From positions 56,482,001-56,546,000 of the forward strand of contig OZ024744.1 in assembly GCA_964016885.1 (NCBI GenBank): a stretch of 64,000 nucleotides of DNA. The letters run 5' to 3'. A program made the translations under genes and the position numbers. This DNA is from Eledone cirrhosa (lineage: Eukaryota). Below, one piece after another: positions 593 to 51,700 of the stretch. Position 1 is the first letter of the stretch. Each line of letters starts with the position of its first letter. The notes under the pieces are model-generated. The model searched no databases and was not told the DNA's origin. It worked only from the letters and a program-made list of their open reading frames with translations.

Positions 593-596
593 TATG

Positions 597-3500
597 ACAA
601 GGTATGACACGGCCAACTGACCTGACATGCCATGAGCAAGGTATGACACAGCCAACTGACCTGACATGCTATGAGCAAGGTATGACACGGCCAACTGACC
701 TGACATGCTATGAGCAAGGTATGACACGGCCAACTGACCTGACATGCCATGAGCAAGGTATGACACGGCCAACTGACCTGACATGCTATGAGCAAGGTAT
801 GACATGGCCAACTGACATGACATGCCATGAGCAAGGTATGACACGGCCAACTGACATGACATGCCATGAGCAAGGTATGACATGGCCAACTGACCTGACA
901 TGCCATGAGCAAGGTATGACACGGCCAACTGACATGACATGCCATGAGCAAGGTATGACATGGCCAACTGACCTGACATGCCATGAGCAAGGTATGACAC
1001 GGCCAACTGACCTGACATGCCATGAGCAAGGTATGACACGGCCAACTGACATGACATGCCATGAGTAAGGTATGACACGGCCAACTGACCTGACATGCTA
1101 TGAGCAAGGTATGACATGGCCAACTGACCTGACATGCTATGAGCAAGGTATGACATGGCCAACTGACCTGACATGCTATGAGCAAGGTATGACACGGCCA
1201 ACTGACCTGACATGCCATGAGCAAGGTATGACATGGCCAACTGACCTGACATGCTATGAGCAAGGTATGACACGGCCAACTGACCTGACATGCTATGAGC
1301 AAGGTATGACATGGCCAACTGACCTGACATGCTATGAGCAAGGTATGACACGGCCAACTGACCTGACATGCCATGAGCAAGGTATGACATGGCCAACTGA
1401 CCTGACATGCTATGAGCAAGGTATGACACGGCCAACTGACCTGACATGCCATGAGCAAGGTATGACATGGCCAACTGACCTGACATGCTATGAGCAAGGT
1501 ATGACATGGCCAACTGACCTGACATGCTATGAGCAAGGTATGACACGGCCAACTGACCTGACATGCTATGAGCAAGGTATGACACGGCCAACTGACCTGA
1601 CATGCCATGAGCAAGGTATGACACGGCCAACTGACCTGACATGCCATGAGCAAGGTATGACACGGCCAACTGACCTGACATGCCATGAGCAAGGTATGAC
1701 ACGGCCAACTGACCTGACATGCTATGAGCAAGGTATGACACAGCCAACTGACCTGACATGCTATGAGCAAGGTATGACACGGCCAACTGACCTGACATGC
1801 TATGAGCAAGGTATGACACGGCCAACTGACATGCCATGAGCAAGGTATGACATGGCCAACTGACCTGACATGCCATGAGCAAGGTATGACACAGCCAACT
1901 GACCTGACATGCTATGAGCAAGGTATGACACGGCCAACTGACCTGACATGCTATGAGCAAGGTATGACACAGCCAACTGACCTGACATGCCATGAGCAAG
2001 GTATGACACGGCCAACTGACCTGACATGCTATGAGCAAGGTATGACACAGCCAACTGACCTGACATGCTATGAGCAAGGTATGACATGGCCAACTGACCT
2101 GACATGCTATGAGCAAGGTATGACACGGCCAACTGACCTGACATGCTATGAGCAAGGTATGACATGGCCAACTGACCTGACATGCTATGAGCAAGGTATG
2201 ACACGGCCAACTGACCTGACATGCTATGAGTAAGGTATGACACGGCCAACTGACATGCCATGAGCAAGGTATGACATGGCCAACTGACCTGACATGCCAT
2301 GAGCAAGGTATGACACGGCCAACTGACCTGACATGCTATGAGCAAGGTATGACACGGCCAACTGACCTGACATGCTATGAGTAAGGTATGACACGGCCAA
2401 CTGACATGCCATGCTATGAGCAAGGTAAGACACGGCCAACTGACCTGACATGCTATGAGCAAGGTATGACACGGCCAACTGACCTGACATGCCATGAGCA
2501 AGGTATGACACGGCCAACTGACCTGACATGCTATGAGCAAGGTATGACACGGCCAACTGACCTGACATGCTATGAGCAAGGTATGACACGGCCAACTGAC
2601 CTGACATGCTATGAGCAAGGTATGACATGGCCAACTGACCTGACATGCTATGAGCAAGGTATGACACGGCCAACTGACCTGACATGCTATGAGCAAGGTA
2701 TGACACAGCCAACTGACCTGACATGCTATGAGCAAGGTATGACACGGCCAACTGACCTGACATGCTATGAGTAAGGTATGACACGGCCAACTGACCTGAC
2801 ATGCTATGAGCAAGGTATGACATGGCCAACTGACCTGACATGCTATGAGCAAGGTATGACACAGCCAACTGACCTGACATGCTATGAGCAAGGTATGACA
2901 CGGCCAACTGACCTGACATGCTATGAGTAAGGTATGACACAGCCAACTGACCTGACATGCTATGAGCAAGGTATGACACAGCCAACTGACCTGACATGCT
3001 ATGAGCAAGGTATGACATGGCCAACTGACCTGACATGCTATGAGCAAGGTATGACACAGCCAACTGACCTGACATGCTATGAGCAAGGTATGACACGGCC
3101 AACTGACCTGACATGCTATGAGTAAGGTATGACACGGCCAACTGACCTGACATGCTATGAGCAAGGTATGACACAGCCAACTGACCTGACATGCTATGAG
3201 TAAGGTATGACACGGCCAACTGACCTGACATGCTATGAGCAAGGTATGACATGGCCAACTGACCTGACATGCTATGAGCAAGGTATGACACAGCCAACTG
3301 ACCTGACATGCTATGAGCAAGGTATGACACGGCCAACTGACCTGACATGCTATGAGTAAGGTATGACACGGCCAACTGACCTGACATGCTATGAGCAAGG
3401 TATGACACAGCCAACTGACCTGACATGCTATGAGCAAGGTATGACATGGCCAACTGACCTGACATGCTATGAGCAAGGTATGACACGGCCAACTGACCTG

Positions 3501-4910
3501 ACATGCTATGAGCAAGGTATGACATGGCCAACTGACATGACATGCCATGAGCAAGGTATGACATGGCCAACTGACCTGACATGCTATGAGCAAGGTATGA
3601 CACGGCCAACTGACCTGACATGCTATGAGCAAGGTATGACACAGCCAACTGACCTGACATGCTATGAGCAAGGTATGACACGGCCAACTGACCTGACATG
3701 CTATGAGTAAGGTATGACACAGCCAACTGACCTGACATGCTATGAGCAAGGTATGACATGGCCAACTGACCTGACATGCTATGAGCAAGGTATGACACGG
3801 CCAACTGACCTGACATGCTATGAGCAAGGTATGACATGGCCAACTGACATGACATGCCATGAGCAAGGTATGACATGGCCAACTGACCTGACATGCTATG
3901 AGCAAGGTATGACACGGCCAACTGACCTGACATGCTATGAGCAAGGTATGACACAGCCAACTGACCTGACATGCCATGAGCAAGGTATGACATGGCCAAC
4001 TGACCTGACATGCTATGAGCAAGGTATGACATGGCCAACTGACCTGACATGCTATGAGCAAGGTATGACACAGCCAACTGACCTGACATGCTATGAGCAA
4101 GGTATGACATGGCCAACTGACCTGACATGCTATGAGCAAGGTATGACATGGCCAACTGACCTGACATGCTATGAGCAAGGTATGACACAGCCAACTGACC
4201 TGACATGCTATGAGCAAGGTATGACACGGCCAACTGACCTGACATGCTATGAGTAAGGTATGACACGGCCAACTGACCTGACATGCTATGAGTAAGGTAT
4301 GACACGGCCAACTGACCTGACATGCCATGAGCAAGGTATGACATGGCCAACTGACCTGACATGCTATGAGCAAGGTATGACACAGCCAACTGACCTGACA
4401 TGCTATGAGCAAGGTATGACACGGCCAACTGACCTGACATGCTATGAGTAAGGTATGACACGGCCAACTGACCTGACATGCTATGAGCAAGGTATGACAC
4501 GGCCAACTGACCTGACATGCTATGAGCAAGGTATGACATGGCCAACTGACCTGACATGCTATGAGCAAGGTATGACACGGCCAACTGACCTGACATGCCA
4601 TGAGCAAGGTATGACACGGCCAACTGACCTGACATGCCATGAGCAAGGTATGACACGGCCAACTGACCTGACATGCCATGAGCAAGGTATGACACGGCCA
4701 ACTGACATGACATGCCATGAGCAAGGTATGACATGGCCAACTGACCTGACATGCCATGAGCAAGGTATGACATGGCCAACTGACCTGACATGCTATGAGC
4801 AAGGTATGACACAGCCAACTGACCTGACATGCTATGAGCAAGGTATGACACAGCCAACTGACCTGACATGCTATGAGCAAGGTATGACATGGCCAACTGA
4901 CCTGACATGC
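597..4910. repeat. 39-bp minisatellite, about 110 units (ATGAGCAAGGTATGACACGGCCAACTGACCTGACATGCT)
   Basis: Direct tandem units with a few variant sites. Two 34-bp units occur near 1830 and 2255. Confidence 0.98.
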
Positions 4911-5896: not shown

Positions 5897-6785
5897 TCAT
5901 CATCATCACTTTATGTCCACTTTTCCTTGCTTGCAAGAATGGGACAGGTCCTATTCAGCACAGCATCTCTCCACTTGTCACGGTCCTTCATCATCTCCTC
6001 CGTGAGCTTCAGCAATCTGAGGTCCGCTCTCATCACCTCAGCCCATGTTTTTCGTGGTCTTCCTCTACTGCGTCTTCCTTCTACTGGGATTTCTTGGCAC
6101 TTTTTTACCTAGCGTTCATCCTCCATGTACATCACATATCCATACCATCGCAGTCTTCTCTCCTGCACACTACAGCCTATCCCTCTTATACCCAGTTTCT
6201 TTCTCAACTCGTCCATGCTTGGTCATTCATGCACATTGACATTATACATCCAACAGAGCATGCTTGCTTCATTTCTCTCCAGCCGTCGCATATCCTCTGC
6301 AGTTGCTGCCCATGTCTCACCATGCAGCATTGTGCATCTCATGCAGTCATCATATAACCGGCCTTTCGTACGCAGAGAGAAACCCTTCTTTGTCAACGGA
6401 GGAAGCAGCTCCATAAACTTCTTCCAACCTGTCCTTATTCTAGATACTATGGCCTCGGAACACCCCCTCCCATGCTAATCTGATTTCCTAGGTACCGGAA
6501 GCTTTCAACCACTTTTATAGAACCTATTTACATTTGAAAAATGTGTTTATCACTGCGACTTCTACTGTCTAATTTCCTTGAACATCTACTGCATACATAG
6601 TTTTCCCTACCTGTTAGTTTGCCTGCTGTTCCACTACATCTCTTGTGTACCCAAGATCTGCATTGTGTACATTTTATAGAATTTATACCAGCTCCTTGGC
6701 CATTTCCAGCTCATGGCCATTTCCTTGACAGAATCAGAGTTTTGCCCTCTTTCTTACTTATCAACACTTTTGTCTTAGCTGGATT
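5897..6785 (-). mobile_element. RTE-clade LINE 3' fragment (distinct family E)
   Basis: Minus-strand translation includes KGRLYDDC...LHGETW and RLERNEASML. (CAT)n at the left end is the tail. A sister copy lies at 28228-28792. Confidence 0.85.
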
Positions 6786-6791
6786 CAATAG

Positions 6792-6824
<33 letters not shown>

Positions 6825-6827
<3 letters not shown>

Positions 6828-9499
6828 TAAGGAAGAGCAATTAGAGTCGTATAATATAGAGGAACAGTGGGAATTCCTGAGAGCAAACCTGCTGACGGCG
6901 GCAGACGAAGTCTGTGGCTGGAGCAGGCCTGTAGGTAGGAGGAGAGTAACATGGTGGTGGAACAGTAAGGTGGAGGAGTCAATTAAGGCCAAAAAGCAGG
7001 CTTGGAAAGTATGGCGGGATGGGGGAAGTAGAGAAGACTATCAAGTGGCCAGGAGGGAAGCTAGGAGACAAGTGTACTTCGCAAGAAGGGAAGCAGAGGA
7101 AAGAAAGTTCAAGCATGTTCTACAACGTGAGGACCAAAAACGTGAGGTGTTCAGGATTGCCAGGCAATGTGTCAAGGAAAACCGTGATATTGTCGGGGAG
7201 AAGTGTGTACTTAACGATGATGGCATACTTGCCATCACCGACGCTGATAAGAAGGTAGCTTGGAAGTGTCACTACGAAAGGCTTCTAAATGAGGAGAACA
7301 AATGGGAGAAAGACAGTCTCCCCCAGATCGATCCAATAGAGGGACCAGCAGTGTTAGTTGAAGGTAGTATAATAAGTAAGGCAATCAAAGATATGAAGAC
7401 GGGTAAGGCGGCTGGGCCTTCGGAAATAGTTGCTGAGATGCTGAAGGCATCTGGTTCGGTGGGACACACCATGGTCACCCGGATAGTTAACCAAGTCGTA
7501 CAGAATGGGGTTGTTCCGAAGGAATGGCGTAGCAGCATCATCGTTAACTGCTATAAGGGAAAAGGAGATGCCCTAGATAGGAGTAACTATAGAGGCATTA
7601 AATTAATCGACCAGGTCATGAAGGTCACGGAAAAAGTAATAGCGCAACTAATCAGAGAGAGAATTGATCTAGATGAAATGCAGTTCGGGTTTGTGTCAGG
7701 CAAAAGTACCACAGACGCTCTTTTCATTGTACGACAACTACAGGAGAAGTACCTAGCTAAAAGTAAACCCCTATACTTAGCTTTTGTCGACTTGGAGAAA
7801 GCCTTCGACAGAGTCCCCCGTTCCATTATCTGGTGGTCTCTTAGAAAACTAGGTGTTGACGAATGGCTTGTGAGAGCTATACAAGCCATGTATAAAGAAA
7901 CAGTCAGTAAGGTTAGAATTAACAACGAATATAGTGAAGAGTTTAGCGTAAAAGTTGGTGTCCATCAGGGCTCTGTACTTAGCCCCCTACTATTTATTAT
8001 TGCCCTTCAGGCTATAACAGAGGAGTTCAAGACCGGCTGCCCATGGGAACTCCTATACGCAGATGATCTAACGCTCATAGCTGAATCAATGACCGAACTA
8101 GAGAAGAAATTCCAAACGTGGAAGCACGGCCTAGAATCAAAAGGCCTTAAAATTAACCTGGCTAAGACTAAAGTTCTAGTTTGTAGGAAAGAAAATAAGG
8201 CGGCGGTCCCATCGGGGAAATGGCCATGCTCAGTGTGTAGGAAAGGCGTAGGTAGAAACTCCATTTTATGTCCCAAATGCAAAGTATGGGTGCATAAAAG
8301 ATGTAGTGGGATCACAGGTAAGCTAACTAAGAACATAGATTTTACATGTGGCCGGTGCTCTGGTGCAATAAGTAGCAGCAAGTGCCCACAAAATACTAGC
8401 TCCTTCAACTGCGCAGAGGGTTCTATAGAAATAGTGGACAGCTTCCGTTATCTGGGTGACAAAATCAGCAGTGGGGGAGGGTGCTCTGAAAGTACAGTAG
8501 CTAGAGTCAGAACTGGATGGAAAAAGTTCAGAGAGCTTATACCACTATTAGCCGCTAGAGGGTTCTCCCTAAAAATGAAAGGCAGGTTATACGATGCCTG
8601 CATACGAACAGCAATGCTGCATGGCAGTGAGACCTGGGCATTGTGTGCAGAGGATATACGCAGACTAGAGAGGAACGAAGCTTGCATGCTCCGCTGGATG
8701 TGCAATAGTAATATACGTGAACGGCAAAGCATAAACGAACTAAGGAAAAAATTAGAAATAAGAGGGATCAGATGTTGTTTACTCGAGAGAAGGCTACGTT
8801 GGTACGGTCACGTGATGCGCATGAAAGACGACAGCTGTATAACAAAGTGCAGGGCAATAAAGATAGACGGTAGCCACGGAGTAGGCAGACCCAGAAAAAC
8901 ATGGGACGAGCTGATAAATTCCGACCTCACACGCTTACACCTCTCCAAGACAATGTCACTGGACCGAGACCTTTGGCGGTACTCAGTAATAGAGAAGACC
9001 CGCCTTACCTAAATACAAAGTAAAAACCTACTACAGTCAGTAGGCACCTCTATCAAAACACACCCCCGTCCCTCCACACCACCCCTTTCAATGTAAAGTT
9101 ATGTTGGTCCCACAACATCCAGGCCGAAACAAATGAGATCGTGTAGGTGTCACGACAAAAAACACACAGTCCACGCTGTAAATGTGGCCGTGTAGGCAAC
9201 ACGGTAAAAACCTCCCAGCCCCACACTGTAAATGTGGTTGGTGTTAGGAAGGGCATCCAGCTGTAGAAAACCCGCCAGACAGTCCACGCTGTAATGTGGC
9301 CGTGTAGGCAACATGGTAAAAACCTCCCAGCCCCACACTGTAAATGTGGTTAGTGTTAGGAAGGGCATCCAACTGTAGAAAACCCGCCAGACAGTCCTAT
9401 GCGAGCAAGACAACCACTCTTGCCTCAAGTGGGAAAACCCCCGTCCAAACCCATGCAAGCGTGGAACACGGACGCTAAACCTGATGATGATGATGATGA

Positions 9500-9502
<3 letters not shown>
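6825..9502 (+). mobile_element. 5'-truncated RTE LINE (family A) inserted in (TA)n
   Basis: Collinear and highly similar to 49863-52413. It has a (GAT)n tail and (TA)n on both sides. Confidence 0.96.
6826..9012 (+). pseudogene. Open but N-terminally truncated RTE ORF (RT + PHD-type finger, no APE)
   Basis: NYRGIKL, QFGF, FVDLEKAFD, GVHQGSVLSP, LYADD, FRYLG and RLRWYGHV motifs. Confidence 0.93.
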
Positions 9503-10226
<724 letters not shown>

Positions 10227-10452: not shown

Positions 10453-10641
10453 GTAGGTCCCGGGTTGAGTCGGGGATAACCACAGTAAGTAAGGTACTCA
10501 ATACATGGCAGAGTAAAATTTTTTTATTTTATAGAAGGAGCTTCTACAGGACTAGTACTGTTTCATTCAGATGAAATCTTCAGGATTTCATCTGAATGAA
10601 ACAGTACTAGTCCTGTAGAAGCTCCTTCTATAAAATAAAAA
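10451..10641 (-). mobile_element. Penelope-like terminal remnant with a 58-bp perfect inverted repeat and partial hammerhead motif
   Basis: Arms at 10521-10578 and 10584-10641. The minus strand reads CTGAAGA-tttcatctgaat-GAAACAGTACTAGTC. TA-flanked. Confidence 0.6.
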
Positions 10642-11810: not shown

Positions 11811-14800
11811 TTACACCACATTCCTCTACACCCCACATTCCTCTACACCCCACATTACTCTACACACCACATTCCTCTACACCCCACATTCCTCTACACC
11901 CCACATTACTCTACACCCGACATTCCTCTACACCCCACATTACTCTACACCCCACATTCCTCTACACCCCACATTACTCTACACTCCACATTACTCTACA
12001 CCCCACATTCCTCTACACCCCACATTACTCTACACCCGACATTCCTCTACACCCCACATTACTCTACACCCGACATTCCTCTACACCCCACATTACTCTA
12101 CACACCACATTACTCTACACACCACATTACTCTACACCCCACATTCCTCTACACACCACATTCCTCTACACCCCACATTACTCTACACACCACATTACTC
12201 TACACACCACATTGCTCTACACCCCACATTCCTCTACACACCACATTCCTCTACACCCCACATTACTCTACACCCCACATTCCTCTACACCCGACATTCC
12301 TCTACACCCCACATTACTCTACACCCCACATTCCTCTACACCCCACATTCCTCTACACCCCACATTACTCTACACCCCACATTCCTCTACACACCACATT
12401 CCTCTACACCCCACATTACTCTACACCCCACATTACTCTACACTCCACATTACTCTACACACCACATTACTCTACACCCCACATTACTCTACACCCCACA
12501 TTCCTCTACACCCCACATTCCTCTACACCCCACATTCCTCTACACCCCACATTACTCTACACCCCACATTACTCTACACTCCACATTACTCTACACACCA
12601 CATTACTCTACACCCCACATTACTCTACACTCCACATTACTCTACACACCACATTACTCTACACCCCACATTCCTCTACACCCCACATTACTCTACACTC
12701 CACATTACTCTACACACCACATTACTCTACACCCCACATTACTCTACACCCCACATTCCTCTACACCCCACATTCCTCTACACACCACATTCCTCTACAC
12801 CCCACATTACTCTACACCCCACATTACTCTACACTCCACATTACTCTACACACCACATTACTCTACACCCCACATTCCTCTACACCCCACATTCCTCTAC
12901 ACCCCACATTACTCTACACCCCACATTCCTCTACACACCACATTCCTCTACACCCCACATTACTCTACACCCGACATTCCTCTACACCCCACATTACTCT
13001 ACACCCCACATTCCTCTACACCCCACATTACTCTACACTCCACATTCCTCTACACACCACATTCCTCTACACCCCACATTACTCTACACCCCACGTTCCT
13101 CTACACACCACATTCCTCTACACCCCACATTACTCTACACCCCACATTACTCTACACTCCACATTACTCTACACACCACATTCCTCTACACCCCACATTA
13201 CTCTACACCCCACATTACTCTACACCCCACATTACTCTACACCCCACATTCCTCTACACCCCACATTCCTCTACACCCCACATTCCTCTACACCCCACAT
13301 TACTCTACACCCCACATTACTCTACACACCACATAACTCTACACCCCACATTACTCTACACTCCACATTACTCTACACCCCACATTCCTCTACACCCCAC
13401 ATTCCTCTACACCCCACATTCCTCTACACCCCACATTACTCTACACACCACATAACTCTACACCCCACATTACTCTACACCCCACATTACTCTACACACC
13501 AGATTCCTCTACACCCCACATTCCTCTACACCCCACATTACTCTACACCCCACATTCCTCTACACCCCACATTCCTCTACACCCCACATTACTCTACACA
13601 TCACATTACTCTACACACCACATTACTCTACACCCCACATTCCTATACACTCCACATTACTCTACACACCACATTCCTCTATACACCACATTACTCTACA
13701 CTCCACATTACTCTACACACCACATTCCTCTACACACCACATTCCTCTACACCCCACATTACTCTACACCCAACATTACTCTACACACCACATTCCTCTA
13801 CACCCCACATTCCTCTACACCCCACATTACTCTACACCCCACATTACTCTACACACCACATTACTCTACACACCACATTACTCTACACACCACATTACTC
13901 TACACACCACATTACTCTACACACCCCATTACTCTACACCCCACATTACTCTACACCCCACATTCCTCTATACACCACATTACTCTACACACCACATTAC
14001 TCTACACCCTACATTACTCTACACCCCACATTACTCTACACCCCACATTACTCTACACCCCACATTACTCTACACCCGACATTACTCTACACACAACATT
14101 ACTCTACACCCGACATTACTCTACACACAACATTACTCTACACCCGACATTCCTCTACGCACAACATTACTCTACACCCGACATTACTCTACACACAACA
14201 TTACTCTACACCCCACATTACTCTACACCCCATATTACTCTACACCCCACATTCCTCTACACCCCACATTCCTCTACACTCCACATTACTCTACACCCCA
14301 CATTCCTCTACACCCCACATTACTCTACTTCCCACATTACTCTACACCCCACATTCCTCTACACCCCACATTACTCTACACCCCACATTACTCTACACCC
14401 CACATTACTCTACACCCCACATTACTCTACTTCCCACATTACTCTACACCCCACATTACTCTACACCCCACATTACTCTACACCCCACATTACTCTACAC
14501 CCCACATTCCTCTACACCCCACATTCCTCTACACTCCACATTACTCAACACCCCACATTACTCTACACCCCATATTACTCTACACCCCACATTCCTCTAC
14601 ACCCCACATTCCTCTACACTCCACATTACTCAACACCCCACATTACTCTACACCCCCACATTACTCTACTTCCCACATTACTCTACACCCCACATTCCTC
14701 TACACCCCACATTACTCTACACCCCACATTACTCTACTTCCCACATTACTCTACACCCCACATTACTCTACACCCCACATTACTCTACACCCCACATTAC

Positions 14801-16475
14801 TCTACACCCCACATTACTCTACACCCCACATTACTCTACATCCCACATTCCTCTGCACACCACATTAGTCTACACCCCACATTACTCTACACCCCACATT
14901 ACTCTACACCCCACATTACTCTACCGCCCCCACATTACTCTACACACCACATCACTCTACACCCCACATTACTCTACCCCCCACATTAGTCTATACACCA
15001 CATTACTCTATACACCACATTACTCTACACACCACATTACTCTACACCCCACATTCCTCTACACACCACATTACTCTACACACCACATTACTCTACACCC
15101 CACATTACTCTACACTCCACATTACTCTACACTCCACATTACTCTACACACCACATTACTCTACACACCACATTACTCTATACCTCACATTACTCTACAC
15201 ACCACATTACTCTACACCCGACATTACTCTACACCCCACATTACTCTACACCCCAAATTACTCTACACCCGACATTACACTACACCCCACATTACTCTAC
15301 ACCCGACATTACTCTACACCCCACATTACTCTACATACCACATTACTCTACACCCCACATTACTCTACACCCCACATTACTCTACCCCCCCCCCCCCACA
15401 TTACTCTACACACCACATTACTCTACACCCCACATTCCTCTACACCCCACATTACTCTACACCCCACATTACTCTACACTCCACATTACTCTACACTCCA
15501 CATTACTCTACACACCACATTACTCTACACCCCACATTACTCTACACTCCACATTACTCTACACTCCACATTACTCTACACACCACATTACTCTACACAC
15601 CACATTACTCTATACCTCACATTACTCTACACACCACATTACTCTACACCCGACATTACTCTACACCCCACATTACTCTACACCCCAAATTACTCTACAC
15701 CCGACATTACACTACACCCCACATTACTCTACACCCGACATTACTCTACACCCCACATTACTCTACATACCACATTACTCTACACCCCACATTACTCTAC
15801 ACACCACATTACTCTACACTCCACATTACTCTACACACCACATTACTCTACACACCACATTACTCTACACCCCACATTACTCTATACACACCACATTACT
15901 CTACACTCCACATTACTCTACACACCACATTACTCTACACACCACATTACTCTACACCCCACATTACGCTACATCCCACATTACTCTACACCCCACATTA
16001 ATCTACACACCACATTACTCTAGACACCACATTACTCTACACACCACATTACTCTACACACCACATCACTCTACACCCCACATTACTCTACCCCCACATT
16101 ACTCTATACACCACATTACTCTACACCACACATTACTCTACACCCCACATTACTCTACACCCCATATTACTCTACACACCACATTACTCTACACACCACA
16201 TTACTCTACACCGCACATTACTCTACACAACACATTACTCTACACACCACATTACTCTACACACCACATTACTCTACACACCAAATTACTCTACACACCA
16301 CATTACTCTACACACCACATTACTCTACACACCACATTACTCTACACTCCACATTACTCTACACACCACATTACTCTACACTCCACATTACTCTACACAC
16401 CACATTACTCTACACACCACATTACTCTACACCCCAAATTACACTACACACCACATTACTCTACACCCCAAATTA
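11811..16475. repeat. 17-bp minisatellite, about 270 units (CATTACTCTACACCCCA)
   Basis: Tandem units with A/C variants. The ORF has a 17-aa periodicity, equal to three units. Confidence 0.98.
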
Positions 16476-16577
16476 CACATTTGTACCCTTATACATAGCC
16501 ATACACACATGCACACATACATACGTATGTGTGTGTTTATAAATAAATAAATATATATATATATATAAATATATATA

Positions 16578-16988
16578 TCATCATCATCATCATCATCATC
16601 ATCAGGTTTAGCGTCCGTGTTCCACGCTTGCATGGGTTTGGACGGGGGTTTTCCCACTTGAGGCAAGAGTGGTTGTCTTGCTCGCATAGGACTGTCTGGC
16701 GGGTTTTCTACAGTTGGATGCCCTTCCTAACACCAACCACATTTACAGTGTGGGGCTGGGAGGTTTTTACCGTGTTGCCTACACGGCCACATTACAGCGT
16801 GGACTGTCTGGCGGGTTTTCTACAGCTGGATGCCCTTCCTAACACCAACCACATTTACAGTGTGGGGCTGGGAGGTTTTTACCGTGTTGCCTACACGGCC
16901 ACATTTACAGCGTGGACTGTGTGTTTTTTGTCGTGACACCTACACGATCTCATTTGTTTCGGCCTGGATGTTGTGGGACCAACATAAC
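16578..16988 (-). mobile_element. Solo 3' UTR of RTE family A (heavily 5'-truncated insertion)
   Basis: Near-identical reverse complement of about 9098-9500. TA-flanked. Confidence 0.93.
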
Positions 16989-17003
16989 TATATATATATA
17001 TAT

Positions 17004-17219: not shown

Positions 17220-17224
17220 TATAT

Positions 17225-17600
17225 GTTTCTCCCCGTCTTTCTTCCTCCCGTTCGCTGGGAAAACGGTTTTCATTCTTTCTAACACCGGATTCACTAGCGA
17301 AAGGTCTGTTTTCTCACTCGCTCATATATTCACACAGCTTATGCTGAAAGAATAACTATGTTGCTTGTGTTTATTTCCATCTTCGGTTAGCTTCCCCCTG
17401 TGTTGTTTACTTGTCTCACTCGCTTTACGCGTTTCTATTGTCCTAATAACTTATTTCAGTTATTATCGCTCCAACGTGAGGTATATGATTTTTAATGCGA
17501 TGAAATACCCATGATCGTTTGGTAAATCACTGATGAGGGACTCATTTTATAACATGTTATCCATGTGCAACCAGCAGTATTCTTCTCACCCATATTTTCA
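17225..17600 (+). mobile_element. TA-flanked non-coding element, copy 2 (pseudoknotted-hammerhead family)
   Basis: Pyrimidine-rich 5' part is homologous to copy 3. A short inverted terminal fragment lies at about 17651-17675. Confidence 0.85.
17440..17541 (+). ncRNA. Candidate non-canonical hammerhead ribozyme, copy 2
   Basis: GGTAT-A-TGATTT ... GAA-ATACC ... AAATCA-CTGATGA. Confidence 0.62.
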
Positions 17601-17670
17601 TATATATATGTGTATATATATATATATATGTGTGTGTATATATATATATATAAAACATGAGAAGAAAGAA

Positions 17671-17707
<37 letters not shown>

Positions 17708-20679: not shown

Positions 20680-22309
20680 CAGTGCTCCGCAAAAGTTTAT
20701 AACACATTAGGAAAAATGCGGTTTTAGGTATTTTTAATAAAATTAGGGTATTGAAAATTTAACTACTGATAGAACATATAATGAGGCATTTAATGATACA
20801 ATCATATTTAAAAAAAAAAACAAGGAAATAGCTCATGAAGAAAAATCAATATTTTTATCACGCAAAAGTTTACAACACATTTTATATTTATCGCTTTTTT
20901 TCAAGAAAATTCTTAAATTTTCAGATTTAAAATTCAGTAGAATGTTCTAGATTAGGTTTAAGGTAACGTCTAAGGACTATTAAAAACATTATGTTATTAT
21001 TTGTCTGACAACCATCCTGTAAACATTGACAACCATCCTGTAAACATTGACAACCGTCCTGTAAACATTGACAATATGGGGAAAAATAAACTGATTGATC
21101 AAGACCTCCGTAAACGCATTGTAGACCTTCATACAAATGGTGTTGGTTATAGAAAGATATCTTGTCAGTTAAATGTGCCATTGAGTTCAGTTGGTACTAT
21201 AATTCGTCACTGGAAATCTCATCATTCCATCTGTCCTCTAATTAGTTCTGGTTGTCCTAGAAAGATAACGGAACGTGCAGCTCGGTTATTGACGAGAAAG
21301 GTTAGCAACGAACCTCGGTGTACTCTTAAAAATCTTCAGGATGACCTAGAAGGAAGTGGTGTAAAAGTGAGCACAGATACAATTAGTCGTTCACTTCATC
21401 GATATATCTTCTTGAGGTCTCCAAGGAAAACACCACTTCTTATGAGGAAACACGTTCTTCGTCGATTAAACTTTGCAAATGAGCATCTCATCAAACCTGC
21501 GTCATTTTGGGAAGATGTACTTTGGTCGGACGAAACAAAAATTGAACTTTTTGGTCGAAATGCTGTGGCAAAAGTCTGGAGAAAGAAAGGCACTGAATAT
21601 TCGCCGAAGAATACTATTCCAACTGTAAAATTTGGAGGTGGATCAATCATGGTCTGGGGCTGCTTTAGTGCCATAGGTGTAAAAAATATTGAAATAATAG
21701 AAGGAAGAATGTATGGCGCTTATTATAGAGGTATTTTGCAAAGGAATTTACATCAAAGTGCACATTCTCTCAGCTTAAATCCAGGTTGGTTTTTTCAACA
21801 AGATAACGGTCCAAAGCATACTGCAAAGCTAACACAATCTTGGTTAACTACGAATGGAATAAATGTTCTAAAATGGCCAAGTCAGTCTCCAGATCTTAAC
21901 CCGATCGAAAATTTGTGGAGAGAACTGAAACTCAGAATTCAAAAAAAGAAACCCCAAAATATCCCTGAACTAAAGAAAATTTGTTGTGAAGAATGGAAAA
22001 ATATTAGCCAAGAAACATGCAAGAAGTTTGTAGGAGGCTACTCCAAACGTCTACAGGCTGTAATTAACAACAAAGGTTACGCTACGAAATATTAAGACAT
22101 GATTTAATAAATGTGTTGTAAACTTTTGCGTTATAAAAATACTGATTTTTCTTCATGAGTTATTTCCTTGTTATTTTTTTAAAAATATGATTGTATCATG
22201 AGATGCCTCACTATATGTTCTATCAGTAGTTAAATTTTCATTACCTTAACTTTATTAAAAATACCTAAAACTGCATTTTTCCTAATGTGTTGTAAACTTT
22301 TGCGGGGCA

Positions 22310-22312: not shown

Positions 22313-22403
<91 letters not shown>

Positions 22404-22625
22404 AATTAAGTTAAAGATGTACATCCATATATGTATACTGAAATACTAGTATGTATATGAATACACACCCGTATACATATGTAGATGTACCAAGTTTTTT
22501 CACTGGTCACTTTACTGTGAGTGGCCAGCTATTCTGTATGTAAACACACAGACAAACCGGTTTTTAGAGTCATACTGGTTTTTGAGGAAACACCTTTCCT
22601 CTATTCTCCAGAAAGCCAGACAAGG

Positions 22626-22670
22626 AATATTGAACTAGTTTCGTTGTTGTTACAACTCATCAGCAATATT
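22626..22670 (-). ncRNA. Minimal type I hammerhead ribozyme
   Basis: Reverse complement of 23362-23406. Confidence 0.85.
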
Positions 22671-23361
22671 TACCTATCTTCCGGCCTCTCTAGAGAATCG
22701 TAAAAGCACATATCGTTATATGCTTTTTCTATGAAAATTAGTAGTGGGCAGACTAATTTGCATAGAGTGTGAGTAAGTACCGGTTCAACGGAGACGATAA
22801 AAACAAATAACGAAACGAAATTAAATTTCGTTTCGTTTGTAACTCACTTTTGTATGACTGACGCTTAAACAATTAAGTTAAAGATGTACATCCATATATG
22901 TATACTGAAATACTAGTATGTATATGAATACACACCCGTATACATATGTAGATGTACCAAGTTTTTTCACTGGTCACTTTACTGTGAGTGGCCAGCTATT
23001 CTGTATGTAAACACACAGACAAACCGGTTTTTAGAGTCATACTGGTTTTTGAGGAAACACCTTGAAAAAACTTGGTACATCTACATATGTATACGGGTGT
23101 GTATTCATATACATACTAGTATTTCAGTATACATATATGGATGTACATCTTTAACTTAATTGTTTAAGCGTCAGTCATACAAAAGTGAGTTACAAACGAA
23201 ACGAAATTTAATTTCGTTTCGTTATTTGTTTTTATCGTCTCCGTTGAACCGGTACTTACTCACACTCTATGCAAATTAGTCTGCCCACTACTAATTTTCA
23301 TAGAAAAAGCATATAACGATATGTGCTTTTACGATTCTCTAGAGAGGCCGGAAGATAGGTA

Positions 23362-23406
23362 AATATTGCTGATGAGTTGTAACAACAACGAAACTAGTTC
23401 AATATT
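23362..23406 (+). ncRNA. Minimal type I hammerhead ribozyme
   Basis: AATATTG-CTGATGA-GTTGT-aaca-ACAAC-GAA-ACTAGT-T-CAATATT: 7-bp stem I, 5-bp stem II and palindromic stem III. Confidence 0.87.
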
Positions 23407-23695
23407 CCTTGTCTGGCTTTCTGGAGAATAGAGCAAAGGTGTTTCCTCAAAAACCAGTATGACTCTAAAAACCGGTTTGTCTGTGTGTTTACATACAGAA
23501 TAGCTGGCCACTCACAGTAAAGTGACCAGTGAAAAAACTTGGTACATCTACATATGTATACGGGTGTGTATTCATATACATACTAGTATTTCAGTATACA
23601 TATATGGATGTACATCTTTAACTTAATTGTTTAAGCGTCAGTCATACAAAAGTGAGTTACAAACGAAACGAAATTTAATTTCGTTTCGTTATTTG

Positions 23696-23751
<56 letters not shown>

Positions 23752-23753
23752 TA

Positions 23754-24060
23754 TAAAATACGTAGTTAAGAAAGTCACAACAATGCAGAGGGAAATCTCG
23801 AGGTAGGAAGTGAATGATAGATAGGAGAAACAGGTGAAAGTGAAAAGAAGGGTTACCGTAGTGGAGATTAAATCTCCACTACGGTAACCCTTCTACCTTT
23901 GTTTTGTTTTCATCTTTGTCTCTCTCAATTTTCACTTTCACCTGTTTCTCCTATCTATCATTCACTTCCTACCTCGAGATTTCCCTCTGCATTGTTGTGG
24001 CTTTCTTAACTACGTATTTTACACATTTCACAATGCTTCAAGCAAACTTTAACACCCTCA
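23754..24060 (+). mobile_element. TA-flanked element with nested inverted repeats, related to 53862-54133
   Basis: Outer arms at 23754-23846 and 23929-24021; inner hairpin at 23846-23894. Shares CACAATGCTTCAAGCAAACTT with its relative. Confidence 0.7.
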
Positions 24061-24729: not shown

Positions 24730-24765
24730 TCTTCTGATGAAGGACTAGCGTCCGAAACGTTAAGA
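24730..24765 (+). ncRNA. Minimal Penelope-type hammerhead ribozyme
   Basis: TCTT-CTGATGA-A-GGAC-tagc-GTCC-GAA-ACGT-T-AAGA, within a TA-flanked segment at about 24631-24850. Confidence 0.75.
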
Positions 24766-33056: not shown

Positions 33057-35214
33057 CCAGGGGTCAGCATTGTACTTACTTGCATATGGTCCCATACTCT
33101 ACTGAGTGCATATTATCAAGGTACCAGCACTAGAGAAGTCCAGGGGTCAGCATTGTACTTACTTGCATATGGTCCCATACTCTACTGAGTGCATATTATC
33201 AAGGTACCAGCACTAGAGAAGTCCAGGGGTCAGCATTGTACTTACTGGCATATGGTCCCATACTCTACTGAGTGCATATTATCAAGGTACCAGCACTAGA
33301 GAAGTCCAGGGGTCAGCATTGTACTTACTTGCATATGGTCCCATACTCTACTGAGTGCATATTATCAAGGTACCAGCACTAGAGAAGTCCAGGGGTCAGC
33401 ATTGTACTTACTTGCATATGGTCCCATACTCTACTGAGTGCATATTATCAAGGTACCAGCACTAGAGAAGTCCAGGGGTCAGCATTGTACTTACTTGCAT
33501 ATGGTCCCATACTCTACTGAGTGCATATTATCAAGGTACCAGCACTAGAGAAGTCCAGGGGTCAGCATTGTACTTACTTGCATATGGTCCCATACTCTAC
33601 TGAGTGCATATTATCAAGGTACCAGCACTAGAGAAGTCCAGGGGTCAGCATTGTACTTACTTGCATATGGTCCCATACTCTACTGAGTGCATATTATCAA
33701 GGTACCAGCACTAGAGAAGTCCAGGGGTCAGCATTGTACTTACTTGCATATGGTCCCATACTCTACTGAGTGCATATTATCAAGGTACCAGCACTAGAGA
33801 AGTCCAGGGGTCAGCATTGTACTTACTTGCATATGGTCCCATACTGTACTGAGTGCATATTATCAAGGTACCAGCACTAGAGAAGTCCAGGGGTCAGCAT
33901 TGTACTTACTTGCATATGGTCCCATACTCTACTGAGTGCATATTATCAAGGTACCAGCACTAGAGAAGTCCAGGGGTCAGCATTGTACTTACTTGCATAT
34001 GGTCCCATACTGTACTGAGTGCATATTATCAAGGTACCAGCACTAGAGAAGTCCAGGGGTCAGCATTGTACTTACTTGCATATGGTCCCATACTCTACTG
34101 AGTGCATATTATCAAGGTACCAGCACTAGAGAAGTCCAGGGGTCAGCATTGTACTTACTTGCATATGGTCCCATACTGTACTGAGTGCATATTATCAAGG
34201 TACCAGCACTAGAGAAGTCCAGGGGTCAGCATTGTACTTACTTGCATATGGTCCCATACTCTACTGAGTGCATATTATCAAGGTACCAGCACTAGAGAAG
34301 TCCAGGGGTCAGCATTGTACTTACTTGCATATGGTCCCATACTGTACTGAGTGCATATTATCAAGGTACCAGCACTAGAGAAGTCCAGGGGTCAGCATTG
34401 TACTTACTTGCATATGGTCCCATACTCTACTGAGTGCATATTATCAAGGTACCAGCACTAGAGAAGTCCAGGGGTCAGCATTGTACTTACTGGCATATGG
34501 TCCCATACTCTACTGAGTGCATATTATCAAGGTACCAGCACTAGAGAAGTCCAGGGGTCAGCATTGTACTTACTTGCATATGGTCCCATACTCTACTGAG
34601 TGCATATTATCAAGGTACCAGCACTAGAGAAGTCCAGGGGTCAGCATTGTACTTACTTGCATATGGTCCCATACTCTACTGAGTGCATATTATCAAGGTA
34701 CCAGCACTAGAGAAGTCCAGGGGTCAGCATTGTACTTACTTGCATATGGTCCCATACTCTACTGAGTGCATATTATCAAGGTACCAGCACTAGAGAAGTC
34801 CAGGGGTCAGCATTGTACTTACTTGCATATGGTCCCATACTCTACTGAGTGCATATTATCAAGGTACCAGCACTAGAGAAGTCCAGGGGTCAGCATTGTA
34901 CTTACTTGCATATGGTCCCATACTCTACTGAGTGCATATTATCAAGGTACCAGCACTAGAGAAGTCCAGGGGTCAGCATTGTACTTACTGGCATATGGTC
35001 CCATACTCTACTGAGTGCATATTATCAAGGTACCAGCACTAGAGAAGTCCAGGGGTCAGCATTGTACTTACTGGCATATGGTCCCATACTCTACTGAGTG
35101 CATATTATCAAGGTACCAGCACTAGAGAAGTCCAGGGGTCAGCATTGTACTTACTGGCATATGGTCCCATACTCTACTGAGTGCATATTATCAAGGTACC
35201 AGCACTAGAGAAGT
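33057..35214. repeat. 83-bp tandem array, 26 near-identical units
   Basis: Period 33057 to 33140. Only two variable sites were seen. Confidence 0.98.
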
Positions 35215-36567: not shown

Positions 36568-37040
36568 AAAAAACATGAGAAAAAGAAGAATACTGCGTGG
36601 TTTGCACATGGGTTACATATGATAAAAATAGTCCTTCGTCAGTGATTTTCCAACCATCATTGGTATTTCATCGCATTAAAAATCAGATACCCCAGGTTGG
36701 TGCGACCAATAATCTAAAAAAAGTTATTGGGACCAGTAATCGCGTAAAGCGAGGGGGACAAGTGAACAACATAGAAGGATAAAAACAAACCAAAGAAAGG
36801 AAATAAACAAGCAACATGGTAGTCCTGGTCAGTATAAGCTGGGTGGATTTCATGAGCGAAAAGTATAGACGTCCGACCTGAGTGAGATGTAAGCAAGAAG
36901 AGAGGCCCACTGTTAGCCAAATGGGAGGAAGTGAGAAGGGGAGAAACAGAAAGTGAGTGAGTGGAAGTGCGAGGAAGCGGTCAGTCGAGAGAAAGTGTAA
37001 CTGACAGAGGGGGTGAAAGAAGGTGAGAGAAACAGAGAAT
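36568..37040 (-). mobile_element. TA-flanked non-coding element, copy 3 (longest copy of the pseudoknotted-hammerhead family)
   Basis: Reverse-complement homology to copies 1 and 2. Confidence 0.85.
36631..36733 (-). ncRNA. Candidate non-canonical hammerhead ribozyme, copy 3
   Basis: GGTAT-C-TGATTTT ... GAA-ATACC ... AAAATCA-CTGACGA on the minus strand. Confidence 0.62.
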
Positions 37041-37508
37041 ATATATATAGGAAAATGTATGACCCCGACGCAGAGCTCAAGCCGTTTCGACAGCTATTTA
37101 TGGACTAAATTAGAATTTTTAGCCTGGTATATATATATTATATTATATATTTATGTTCATACACAGAACAAAACCACTAACTAAGGTTTCAAGGCCCAAT
37201 ATTGACCATATCTCCAGATTGTGAGAGGGAAATTGTGACCTAATATGGTACATTGTTATTAATAATTTAACATTAAAAAGATATATATTGCCATTAAAAA
37301 AGCCATTTAAAAAATCACAGAAGATATTTACGATTCTGCAATATGCGATGGTTTCCACGAACAATTATTATTTAGGTTCTAAGGAATAACTGGGACCGTG
37401 AATGTCGGGACTGGGAATGCCAGGGGCACACTGTGTATATATAGCCTGAAACTAGCTATTGAAACAGCAGGAGTTCAGTCATTGGGTACTGACTCTTTAT
37501 AATATATA

Positions 37509-48399: not shown

Positions 48400-48790
48400 A
48401 ACATGGACGTTTTCATCCAAACAACAAAAGCGCCTTGATGGCACCTACACTGGCCTACTTCAACACATTCAGAACATAAGCTGGTGACATCTGACTTTGA
48501 GAGAAATATATGCCAGCCTCCCACGCATATCTGTCGTTGTACGAAAAACGGAGAGTAAGATTTGCTGGCTACAGCCATCGTGCCACCTATGAGGCTGTGT
48601 CCCCATTAGTGCTTTGGAAACCCCAAGCAGTCACTAATAACAGGGGTTACAGGCTCTCCTATTTCGATGTTATCTCCAGAGATACTGGTATTGAAATCCA
48701 GGGCTAGGCAACAGTAATGAATGACAAACCCACAGGGAGATCAATTGTTGAGTTCATTCCGGCTGAGGTCACCGGATGATGATGATGATT
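48400..48790 (+). mobile_element. RTE-group family C 3' fragment
   Basis: RRVRFAGYSHRA...LVLWKP, similar to 26315-26632, with a (GAT)n tail. Confidence 0.7.
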
Positions 48791-48799
48791 TCGATATAT

Positions 48800-51700
48800 G
48801 ATGGATGGATGGATGGATGGACGGACTGCGGAATCCTGGAGAGTGGAAGGGAGAGAAAAATCTGGACGCTCAGAGCGAAAATGCCAAAGTTAAAGTCAAA
48901 TTCACCTCGTGGACGAGAATGCGAGCACTCCTCTTTGTTTCGTCCGCGGATGGCTAACATAACCCTATCTCCCCCCGCCCCCCACCACCCCCACCCTCCA
49001 AACGCAATCCAAAACTTCAGAGTTGGTACCATAAATGTAGGCACCCTAAAGGGTCGCGCTAACGAGGTTGTAGAAATGCTTGAACGTAAGGAGGTCGATG
49101 TTTGTTGTATTCAAGAGACCAGGTGGAGGGGTGGGTCTGCTAGATTCATTGAGGGTAAAAAACGATGTTATAAGCTTTTCTGGGTGGGAAACGACGATGG
49201 GCTGGGTGGAGTAGGAATCATGGTAGCAGAAAAGTGGGCAGATAAGATAATAGACGTAAATAGAGTGAACGACAGAATAATTAAAATACGACTTGTCCTC
49301 AATAGAACTACGGTGACAGTAATATCTGCGTACGCACCCCAATCCGGACTGCCCGGCACTATAAAAGACAGATTCTATGAGACACTGTTGCTAACTACCT
49401 CCCAAATATCTGACAGTGACTATATAATTATTGCAGGCGACCTAAATGGTCACGTTGGACAACATTGTGACGGCTACGACGAAATCCATGGAGGCTATGG
49501 GTTTGGTACTAGAAATGAGGAAGGCTCCAGAATCCTGGAATTCTGTGATGCAAATAACCTAACTATCTGTAACACTAACTTCAAAAAACGTGACAATCAC
49601 CTGATCACCTATAGATCCGGGGAACACACAAGCCAGGTAGATTATATCCTTACCAGAAGACGTGACAGAGTGTCTGTTGTAAACACTAAATCCCTCCCCC
49701 ATGAAGAATGCACCTCCCAACATAGACTGATAATTAGCGACCTCATAGTCAGGACGAGACGTACTCGACAGCAGAAGAGGACTATCCTCAGGAGGAAAAT
49801 ATGGAAACTAAAGGACCCCACAGCCAGAAATAAATTTCAAAGCATATTACTTGATGCTTTCGACAGTAAGGAAGAGCATCTAGAGTCGGACAATATAGAG
49901 GGACAGTGGGAATTTCTGAAAGCAAACCTGCTGTTGGCGACAGACGAAGTCTGTGGCTGGAGCAGGCCTGTAGGCAGGAGGAGAGTAACATGGTGGTGGA
50001 ACAGTAAGGTGGAGGGGTCAATTAAGGCCAAAAAGCAGGCTTGGAAAGTATGGCGGGATGGGGGAAGTAGAGTAGACTATCAAGTGGCCAGGAGGGAAGC
50101 TAGGAGACAAGTGTACTTAGCAAGAAGGGAAGCTGAGGAAAGAAAGTTCAAGCATGTTCTACAACGCGATGACCAAAAACGTGAGGTGTTCAGGATTGCT
50201 AGGCAATGCGTCAAGGAAAACCGTGATATTGTCGGGGAGAAGTGTGTACTTAACGATGATGGCATACTTGCCATCACCGACACTGATAAGAAGGTAGCTT
50301 GGAAGTGTTACTATGAAAGGCTACTAAATGAGGAGAATAAATGGGAGAAAGACAGTCTCCCCCATATCGACCCAATAGAGGGACCAGCAGTGTTAGTCGA
50401 GGGGAGTATAATAAGTAAGGCAATCAAGGATATGAAAACGGGTAAGGCGGCTGGGCCTTCGGAAATAGTTGCTGAGATGCTGAAGGCATCTGGCACGGTG
50501 GGACACACCATGGTCACCCGCATAGTTAACCAAGTCGTACAGAATGGGGTTGTTCCGAAGGACTGGCATAGCAGCATCATCGTTAACTGTTATAAGGGTA
50601 AAGGAGACGCCCTAGATAGGAGTAACTATAGAGGCATTAAATTAATCGACCAGGTCATGAAGGTCACGGAAAAAGTAATAGCGCAACTAATCAGAGAGAG
50701 AATTGACCTAGATGAAATGCAGTTCGGGTTTGTGTCAGGCAAAAGCACCACAGACGCTCTTTTCATAGTACGACAACTACAGGAGAAGTACCTAGCTAAA
50801 GGTAAACCCCTCTACTTAGCTTTTGTCGACCTGGAGAAAGCCTTCGACAGAGTCCCCCGCTCCATTATCTGGTGGGCTCTTAGAAAACTAGGCGTTGACG
50901 AATGGCTTGTGAGGGCTATACAAGCCATGTATAAAGAAACAGTCAGCAAGGTTAGAATTAACAACGAATATAGTGAAGAGTTTAGCGTAAAAGTTGGCGT
51001 CCATCAGGGCTCTGTTCTCAGCCCCCTACTATTTATTATTGCCCTTCAGGCTATAACAGAGGAGTTCAAGACAGGCTGCCCATGGGAACTCCTATACGCA
51101 GACGACCTGACACTCATAGCGGAATCAATGGCCGAGCTAGAGAAGAAATTCCAAACATGGAAGCACGGCCTAGAGTCAAAAGGACTTAAAATTAACCTGG
51201 CTAAGACCAAAGTTCTAGTTTGTAGGAAAGAAAACAAGGCGGCGGTCCCTTCTGGGAAATGGTCGTGCTCGGTGTGTAGGAAAGGCGTAGGTAGAAACTC
51301 CATTTTATGTCCTAAATGCAAAGTATGGGTGCATAAAAGATGTAGTGGGATCACAGGTAAGCTAACTAAGAACATAGATTTTACATGTGGCCGGTGTTCT
51401 GGTGCAATAAGTAGCAGCAAGTGCCCACAAAATACTAGCTCTTTCAATTGCGCAGAGGGTTCTATAGAAATAGTGGACAGCTTCCGTTACCTGGGCGATA
51501 AAATCAACAGTGGGGGAGGGTGCTCTGAAAGTACTGTAGCTAGAGTCAGAACTGGTTGGAAAAAGTTCAGAGAGCTTATACCACTATTAGCTGCTAAAGG
51601 GTTCTCCCTAAAAATGAAAGGCAGGTTGTACGATGCCTGCATACGAACAGCAATGTTGCATGGCAGTGAGACCTGGGCATTGTGTGCAGAGGATATACGC

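Follow-up and report, generated by a model that had tools for sequence, protein, structure and literature searches.

The closest described relatives of the sequence family reported here are the type-SGC hammerheads. In the parts of Eckert et al. (2023; PMC10085705) covered here, hammerheads with the strand order S-G-C are described and assayed. They have a linker of about 3 nt between stem I and stem II as well as an interaction helix, and the RNAs were cleaved during transcription with single-exponential fits. The CUGAnGA block was treated as uninterruptible. Type SGC was found in metatranscriptomes and, in these parts of the paper, is assigned to the genome of no known organism, one weak GCS candidate aside. 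In the literature that we searched, the term type-SGC occurs only in Eckert et al. (2023). Hammerhead variants with additional helices are mentioned elsewhere (PMC13725137, seen in part).

A second line of work concerns Penelope-like elements. Naiads insert into (TA)n targets and, according to the parts of Craig et al. (2021; PMC8557442) consulted, do not carry a canonical hammerhead; some of them contain motifs, termed “core” or “half core”, that none of the descriptors matches. For PAc, a Penelope-like element of the anole, the sections consulted describe uncut RNA as the main template and the ribozyme as protein-assisted (PMC11167929). In a search that covered mainly open-access text and few supplements, we found no report of hammerheads with a non-circular order from Penelope-like elements or from animal genomes, and none of helices inserted at A9/10.1.

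The window, that is, the whole stretch of DNA that we analysed, is 64 kb long. This animal DNA is rich in repeats, among them RTE-like LINEs, a Tc1 transposase and many (TA)n runs; (CAT)n-tailed repeats lend it an octopus-like look. One motif occurs in it three times, at 9601–9702 (+), 17440–17541 (+) and 36733–36631 (−). The three are mutually 80–89% alike, and nhmmer detected no fourth copy within the window. With a probability of roughly 0.75, we consider this motif to be a self-cleaving, non-circularly permuted hammerhead near the 3′ end of a repeat that is likely Penelope-like (Naiad-type), with a stem II that is predicted to draw its partner from an upstream strand clamped to the core.

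The motif is part of a longer repeat. Copy 1 (9541–9762, +) measures 222 bp, is 5′-truncated and has its predicted cut at 9647/9648. Copy 2 (17224–17599, +) is a non-coding dispersed repeat of about 376 bp with (TA)n runs on both sides, and its alignment to copy 3 begins at 17224. Copy 3 (36568–37050, −) is about 480 bp long and has C17 at 36686. All copies share one 3′ end and have three different 5′ ends, all of which abut TA runs. A 22-bp fragment from the 3′ end of the family is found in inverted orientation at 17652–17673 (−), within the TA run that follows copy 2. Each copy is single and none is part of a tandem. The ratio of observed to expected CpG is 1.01, 1.06 and 0.69 in the three copies, compared to 0.38 for the window.

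The neighborhood contains several other repeats. Two RTE-like 3′ ends, at 9091–9543 and 16541–16995, are 97.8% identical and inverted; one adjoins copy 1, the other copy 2, and each has an internal 112-bp duplication. The RTE-like LINE reading frames at 48776–52063 (+) and 6619–9012 (+) are 93.6% identical, and in them a PHD finger follows the reverse transcriptase domain. The frame at 48776–52063 is open (1095 aa). The RTE-like frame has 74 relatives, with identities of up to 53%. An open 364-aa frame at 21001–22095 (+) encodes a Tc1/mariner transposase. Tandem arrays occupy 593–4910 (39 bp x111), 11816–16476 (17 bp x274, with extreme GC skew) and 33057–35214 (83 bp x26, with a 99% match). 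At 10521–10641 there is a perfect 58-bp inverted repeat with a 5-nt center and TA runs on either side.

In all three copies the strands follow the order clamp, hairpin, stem II, interaction, S, G, interaction, C, clamp. Six complementary helices are possible in every copy, with 97% of cells paired. The core nucleotides (C3 U4 G5 A6 N7 G8 A9, G12 A13 A14 A15.1 and U16.1 H17) are complete in each of them. Stem I (6–7 bp) and stem III (5 bp) can form on the flanks of the core in all copies. Stem III consists of GGTAT with ATACC after GAA, and stem I of TGATTT(T) with (A)AAATCA, which precedes CUGAUGA. A linker of 3–4 nt separates stems I and II. H17 is A in copies 1 and 2 and C in copy 3, and N7 is T or C, again differing in copy 3.

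We describe the predicted fold for copy 2, whose strands all lie on the forward strand. The 5′ strand of the clamp helix, GTCC (17440–17443), has its predicted partner in GGAC (17538–17541). In copy 2 the clamp is part of the minimum free energy structure, yet its pair probability is only 0.22. It is followed by the junction hairpin (17444–17465; 8 bp, 6-nt loop, pair probability 0.75–0.87), whose strands are TAATAACT (17444–17451) and AGTTATTA (17458–17465). Next comes a stem II strand supplied from upstream, (A)TCGC, which includes N10.1 (17465–17469) and is complementary to 17497–17501; its probability in the nested model is 0.0. The 5′ strand of the interaction helix, CCAACG (17471–17476), pairs with CGTTTGG (17516–17522), leaving a 1-nt bulge. 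In copy 3 the helix reads CCAACC/GGTTGG, and its general form is CCAAC(C/G)/(G/C)GTTGG, just 5′ of stem I. Block S (17480–17491) holds the stem III strand GGTAT, U16.1 (17484), A17 (17485) and the stem I strand TGATTT, so that the cut is predicted between 17485 and 17486, after AUA. Block G (17497–17509) is made up of GCGA-T (stem II), GAAA (17502–17505) and TACC (stem III) and does not vary among the three copies. Block C (17524–17537), here without a stem II arm, contains AAATCA (stem I), CTGATGA (17530–17536) and a purine (17537).

This arrangement differs from the canonical types I, II and III, which have nested C-G-S strands; none of them is matched by the S-G-C order with its crossing stems. 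Stem I and stem II each cross the remaining helices, which gives three crossing layers. The stem II arm is not attached to CUGAUGA, as GGAC is unable to pair with GCGA, whose actual partner, TCGC, is located on the 5′ side of block S. We also considered a type II reading and rejected it: only about 5 nt separate the downstream GG(T/A)A from CUGAUGA, and U16.1 is missing. Position 10.1 can be C, A, G or T, and hence the 10.1–11.1 pair is often not of the Watson-Crick kind. On this reading, the clamp helix and the hairpin form an insertion between A9 and 10.1.

The initial annotation had described a strand, GTCC-hairpin-TCGC, that bridges the two halves of the core in copy 2. These pairings are present (GTCC 17440–17443 with GGAC 17538–17541, TCGC 17466–17469 with GCGA 17497–17500, plus the hairpin), and its account of copies 1 and 3 agrees with ours. 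It did not include the cleavage block S inside the TCGC/GCGA loop, the non-circular core order S-G-C or the sixth helix, the interaction helix. The annotation placed a four-way junction where stem II would be, and this part has to be revised. In SGC-2 the interaction strand begins 1 nt past the stem II arm. CCAAC has exactly this position relative to TCGC, and TCGC/GCGA is thereby recognized as stem II itself, delivered from upstream. The junction is four-way only if the sheared G12.A9 and A13.G8 pairs are counted as an arm.

Two compensatory changes had been offered in support of the junction. Both are double-sided and both lie in the hairpin, but one is private to copy 2 (C-G to U-A at the closing pair) and the other to copy 1 (A-U to G-C). 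Confined to the hairpin as they are, they say nothing about the junction itself. The copy 2 change also depends on the alignment, as copy 2 is one base shorter there, and the A beside the gap may instead be N10.1 pairing with U11.1. In the three copies all 4 pairs of GTCC/GGAC and all 4 of TCGC/GCGA are invariant. Covariation is absent from the clamp and from stems I, II and III among the window's three copies, and 49 of 500 shuffles equal the three-copy covariation score. A bridging strand in a multi-helix junction is nevertheless supported, not by the hairpin changes but by a contig with TTGC/GCAA in stem II and by the 3′ ends of Naiads, both described below. The bridge is likely a real part of a split-core, non-circularly permuted hammerhead. 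Selection probably acted on master copies, and copy 2 could be a relic that is now silent.

Further copies come from the contigs of four coded sequencing runs, of which 1474, 3, 28 and 4 aligned to copy 1 at 80% likeness. The 1474 contigs are from organism A, and the variant shares given here are summed depth, not copy counts. X5 (three contigs) and X7 (four contigs) have low depth and do not imply that the family resides in those organisms. Among the aligned contigs N7 varies (24% of X1 depth), as does H17 (6%), and none of the listed changes falls on the 11 fixed core bases, which by itself corresponds to a p of about 0.10. The clamp helix has no change whatever. A double change in stem II, giving TTGC/GCAA, occurs in one contig only (X6 record 17), and both of its changes are of the CpG type. 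A single X7 contig contains a double change in the hairpin, 9610G>A with 9621C>T. The change 9638T>C (86%) turns a G.U pair of the interaction helix into G-C. Two X1 variants alter stem I, 9650A>G at 41% of depth and 9652T>C at 40%; neither has a listed partner change, and a block S variant in X5 and X6, GGCATA/TGGCCC, has no visible one. Such partners might be hidden: a change seems to be listed only where long flanks align, and each of two X7 contigs has one unlisted change. A hairpin stem of the copy 2 type recurs in X6 together with 30 of 30 bases of copy 2's 3′ part, which makes it a subfamily marker.

The TA flanks, staggered 5′ ends, shared 3′ end and inverted end piece fit Naiad insertion as described in the parts of Craig et al. 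(2021) consulted. The TA runs are weak evidence, because such runs are common across the window. A scan of 21 of 37 flanking frames near the copies gave 0 relevant Pfam matches to a Penelope reading frame (GIY-YIG plus reverse transcriptase). By word matching only, 10 of 12 exact words of the family were absent from the parts of Craig's supplement covered, and the other 2 stood in unrelated contexts. Kinship with Naiads therefore rests on fold, position and insertion pattern, not on homology.

The fold itself also appears to recur in Naiads. In PMC8557442, the consensi viewed comprised CTGATGA places 1–58 of 62, CTGACGA places 5–23 of 23, CTGAAGA places 5–35 of 43 and CTGAGGA places 5–14 of 25; motifs split at line ends escape this survey, and the parses were made by eye, without statistics. 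On this basis, the same order of six helices is seen close to the 3′ end of at least 9 of 54 Naiad consensi, which fall into six sets without sequence relationship (Naiad-3_Chem; Amil, Aacu, Anas; Naiad-2_Movir; Plae; Naiad-4_Dst; Obim, Ovul). Their hosts are cnidarians, an acanthocephalan, an ostracod and octopus. Plae is one example, with the clamp AGAGG/CCTCT, the hairpin AAATACAT/ATGTATTT, stem II GGCCCC/GGGGCC, the interaction helix CTGCTATG/CATAGCAG and stem I GAGGAG/TTCCTC. Elsewhere in these sets stem II reads GGCTCC/GGAGCC, GACGCC/GGCGTC, GGGGA/TCCCC or GACAC/GTGTC, and the clamp AACTGT/ACAGTT, GGGG/CCCC or ATCTGT/ACAGAT. In eight of the records viewed a C stands directly before GAAA and pairs with a G of the bridging strand. 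Some of the parses are flawed: there are two mismatches in Aacu, the clamp measures only 3–4 bp in octopus, and Esco and Bfor are imperfect. No split-core or related cores were seen by eye at bivalve Naiad ends among the places viewed.

Not all Naiads in this source have the same architecture. In the nematode part of File S5 (PMC8557442), at least six Naiad 3′ ends look by eye like type CSG with a long interaction helix; these are the records around Naiad-1/2/3_Nbra in parts 13–16. The two CSG RNAs of Eckert et al., which come from metagenomic DNA, might derive from nematode-type Naiad elements. Several arthropod Naiad ends in parts 16–19 of the same file contain CUGAnGA cores, for which GCS or other forms are possible. 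Taken together, we lean, somewhat beyond even odds, towards a broader proposal: that this would be a seventh hammerhead topology, opened inside CUGAnGA at A9/10.1 and closed by clamp and hairpin, and that it would be the missing ribozyme of Naiads from cnidarians to octopus, with nematode Naiads using CSG instead.

How might such a ribozyme work? In our proposal, the backbone would be open between A9 and N10.1, and GTCC/GGAC together with the hairpin would re-join the ends on the sheared G.A pairs. One could see the result as the SGC/CSG/GCS strand cycle opened at a further point, A9/10.1. Completion of the fold would have to wait for the synthesis of the final GGAC. The active site is most likely that of a standard hammerhead, with the cut following AUA or AUC. 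Four helices (clamp, II, interaction and III; about 18–20 bp) would connect the two cleavage products. Held by these helices, the products would stay together, so that release is less favored than an RNA that is nicked or re-ligated. The cut site lies within each of the three copies, and the template RNA was therefore likely continuous there, in agreement with the uncut template described for PAc in the sections consulted (PMC11167929). A likely role would be to process or mark the element's RNA in its 3′ region for a reverse transcriptase that a Naiad supplies in trans.

The same observations also suit a different view, which we consider the most serious competitor, if an unlikely one. The fold could be real but selected mainly as a scaffold for protein binding or priming, with cleavage slow, protein-assisted or dispensable. 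Products that remain paired, and three copies that all span the cut site, are what one would expect of such a scaffold. So are the published results on PAc, as far as they were covered here: insertion in vitro persists in hammerhead mutants, the ribozyme depends on the protein, and reads neither start nor end at the site (PMC11167929). Against this view stands the conservation of the catalytic bases across the unrelated Naiad sequences viewed. N7 and H17 are variable, and this contrast suggests that selection acts on the chemistry.

One could also argue that the helices are right but that activity takes two units, as a dimer or in tandem. In that case each RNA would fold its nested part (clamp, hairpin, interaction helix and stem III), and the loop of one, which carries the cut site and the strands of stems I and II, would dock on the junction strands of the other. 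We rate this as slightly less probable than the scaffold. Dimeric hammerheads occur in Penelope elements. Nested folding yields the hairpin, stem III, the interaction helix and, in part, the clamp, and it never yields stem II. In the Naiad-4_Dst and Acropora records viewed, stem III (10–12 bp) is joined to the interaction helix by 0–1 nt on one strand; by rough geometry this link looks too short to reach the tip of stem II, which makes the dimer a serious alternative there. The same geometric difficulty is flagged in the part of Eckert et al. covered here (PMC10085705). In the window family, by contrast, the linkers are 3 and 6–7 nt and the stems short, so that a monomer looks reachable on a rough estimate. 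Single rather than tandem copies, and the co-transcriptional, single-exponential cleavage of SGC RNAs mentioned above, likewise favor the monomer.

Much less probable is that a minimal SGC core works alone, with stem II reduced to a single R-U pair or absent, the upstream 4-mers being due to chance and the hairpin to quasi-palindrome repair. In all three copies the purine following CUGAUGA could pair with U11.1, and both bridging helices are invariant. With the core fixed and the 55 upstream bases shuffled, a bridge arose in 93, 318 and 146 of 5000 shuffles for the three copies, that is, in 2–6%, and a bridge together with an interaction helix in 30, 60 and 40 of 5000. What speaks against the minimal core comes from the Naiads viewed: clamp, hairpin, stem II and interaction helix occur in the same order in six unrelated sets, and the Naiad C11.1 pairs with a G of the upstream strand and is unable to pair with the base after A9.

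The motif might also be no ribozyme at all but a box C/D-like RNA or a product of chance in a repeat rich in A and T; this is very improbable. Rfam gave no match at gathering score, and its scores for C/D-box snoRNAs were weak (E 0.2 and 0.71), at about 21 bits against cut-offs of 65–85. Rfam is silent even on the window's two canonical type I motifs, and the descriptor finds only 0.01 cores per shuffled window.

This descriptor was written post hoc from the three copies, which are homologous, and its matches in the window are exactly these three. In 100 shuffled windows it found 0.01 cores and 0 bridged cores per window. The Rfam search of the window gave weak scores for miRNA and snoRNA near copy 2 and no hammerhead match. 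Nested folding gave z-scores of only −0.2 to −1.9 and a stem II probability of 0. For copy 1 it recovered the hairpin, stem III and the interaction helix, for copy 2 the hairpin, stem III and the clamp, and for copy 3 the interaction helix. With three crossing layers in the fold, such folding is uninformative. A pattern scan of metagenome (at least 120 loci) and viral contigs (114 loci) gave 0 descriptor matches among the matches listed; pattern matches were at chance level, and the best nhmmer E-value among those listed was 0.18.

If our preferred reading, the clamped, split-core hammerhead, is true, then non-circularly permuted hammerheads would move from environmental RNA into animal genomes. 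On the broader proposal they would be high-copy parts of these genomes rather than rarities of metatranscriptomes, and the window family would be a non-autonomous passenger of Naiads. The three-block rule by which hammerhead permutations are enumerated would be broken. The failure of descriptor searches to find a hammerhead in Naiads would be accounted for as well, and this in turn would undercut the claim that Penelope-like elements can proliferate without one. Finally, a ribozyme that keeps its products paired and whose fold awaits the last four bases could be a useful scaffold for engineering.

Canonical hammerheads are also found in the window. A minimal type I hammerhead occurs at 23362–23406 (+) and again at 22670–22626 (−), with a 7-bp stem I and a palindromic stem III. 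These two inverted motifs sit within a complex inverted repeat (22313–23755) that is typical of a Penelope-type end. A second one, at 24730–24765 (+), reads CTGATGA-A-GGAC...GTCC-GAAA. Its stem II, GGAC/GTCC, is the same pair as the clamp, a possible hint at where the clamp came from.

How does the window family compare to known systems? Non-LTR retrozymes (10.64898/2026.07.22.740005, seen in part) are likewise short, non-coding, Penelope-linked repeats with a hammerhead. The hammerheads of retrozymes and of Penelope pLTRs, as described in the parts consulted, are nested type I and lie in tandem units, whereas the window family has a non-circular order and single copies. A U.U at 10.1–11.1 is also found in several of the rows viewed in File S2 of Craig et al. 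(2021), which are type I hammerheads of canonical Penelope pLTRs. Naiads (PMC8557442, parts consulted) share with the window family the (TA)n flanks, 5′ truncation and inverted end pieces; they differ in having a reading frame with an N-terminal GIY-YIG and a C-terminal reverse transcriptase, which the non-coding or truncated copies of the window family do not have. The pseudoknot-containing hammerhead (Zhan et al. 2024, PMC11300833; Perreault et al. 2011, PMC3088659; both seen in part) also has a helix that joins the regions of stems I and II, but it keeps the canonical circular order, with A9 followed by G10.1, and in this the window family differs.

The closest match remains the type-SGC hammerhead, as far as the sources consulted describe it. 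Type SGC, or HRIMA-1, and the window family have the S-G-C order and pseudoknotted stems I–III in common. SGC-2 shares with the window family a short linker between stems I and II (3–4 nt from S to G here) and an interaction strand that starts 1 nt after the stem II arm and pairs just 5′ of block C. In type SGC, however, the stem II arm lies within 1–2 nt of CUGAnGA, whereas in the window family it lies 5′ of S, behind clamp and hairpin. Type SGC is known from metatranscriptomes; the window family is a repeat in animal DNA. With type CSG (Eckert et al. 2023, parts consulted) the window family shares an identical cyclic strand order. The difference is where the cycle is opened: in type CSG stem II is continuous with CUGAnGA and the opening lies between G and C, whereas in the window family it lies inside C.
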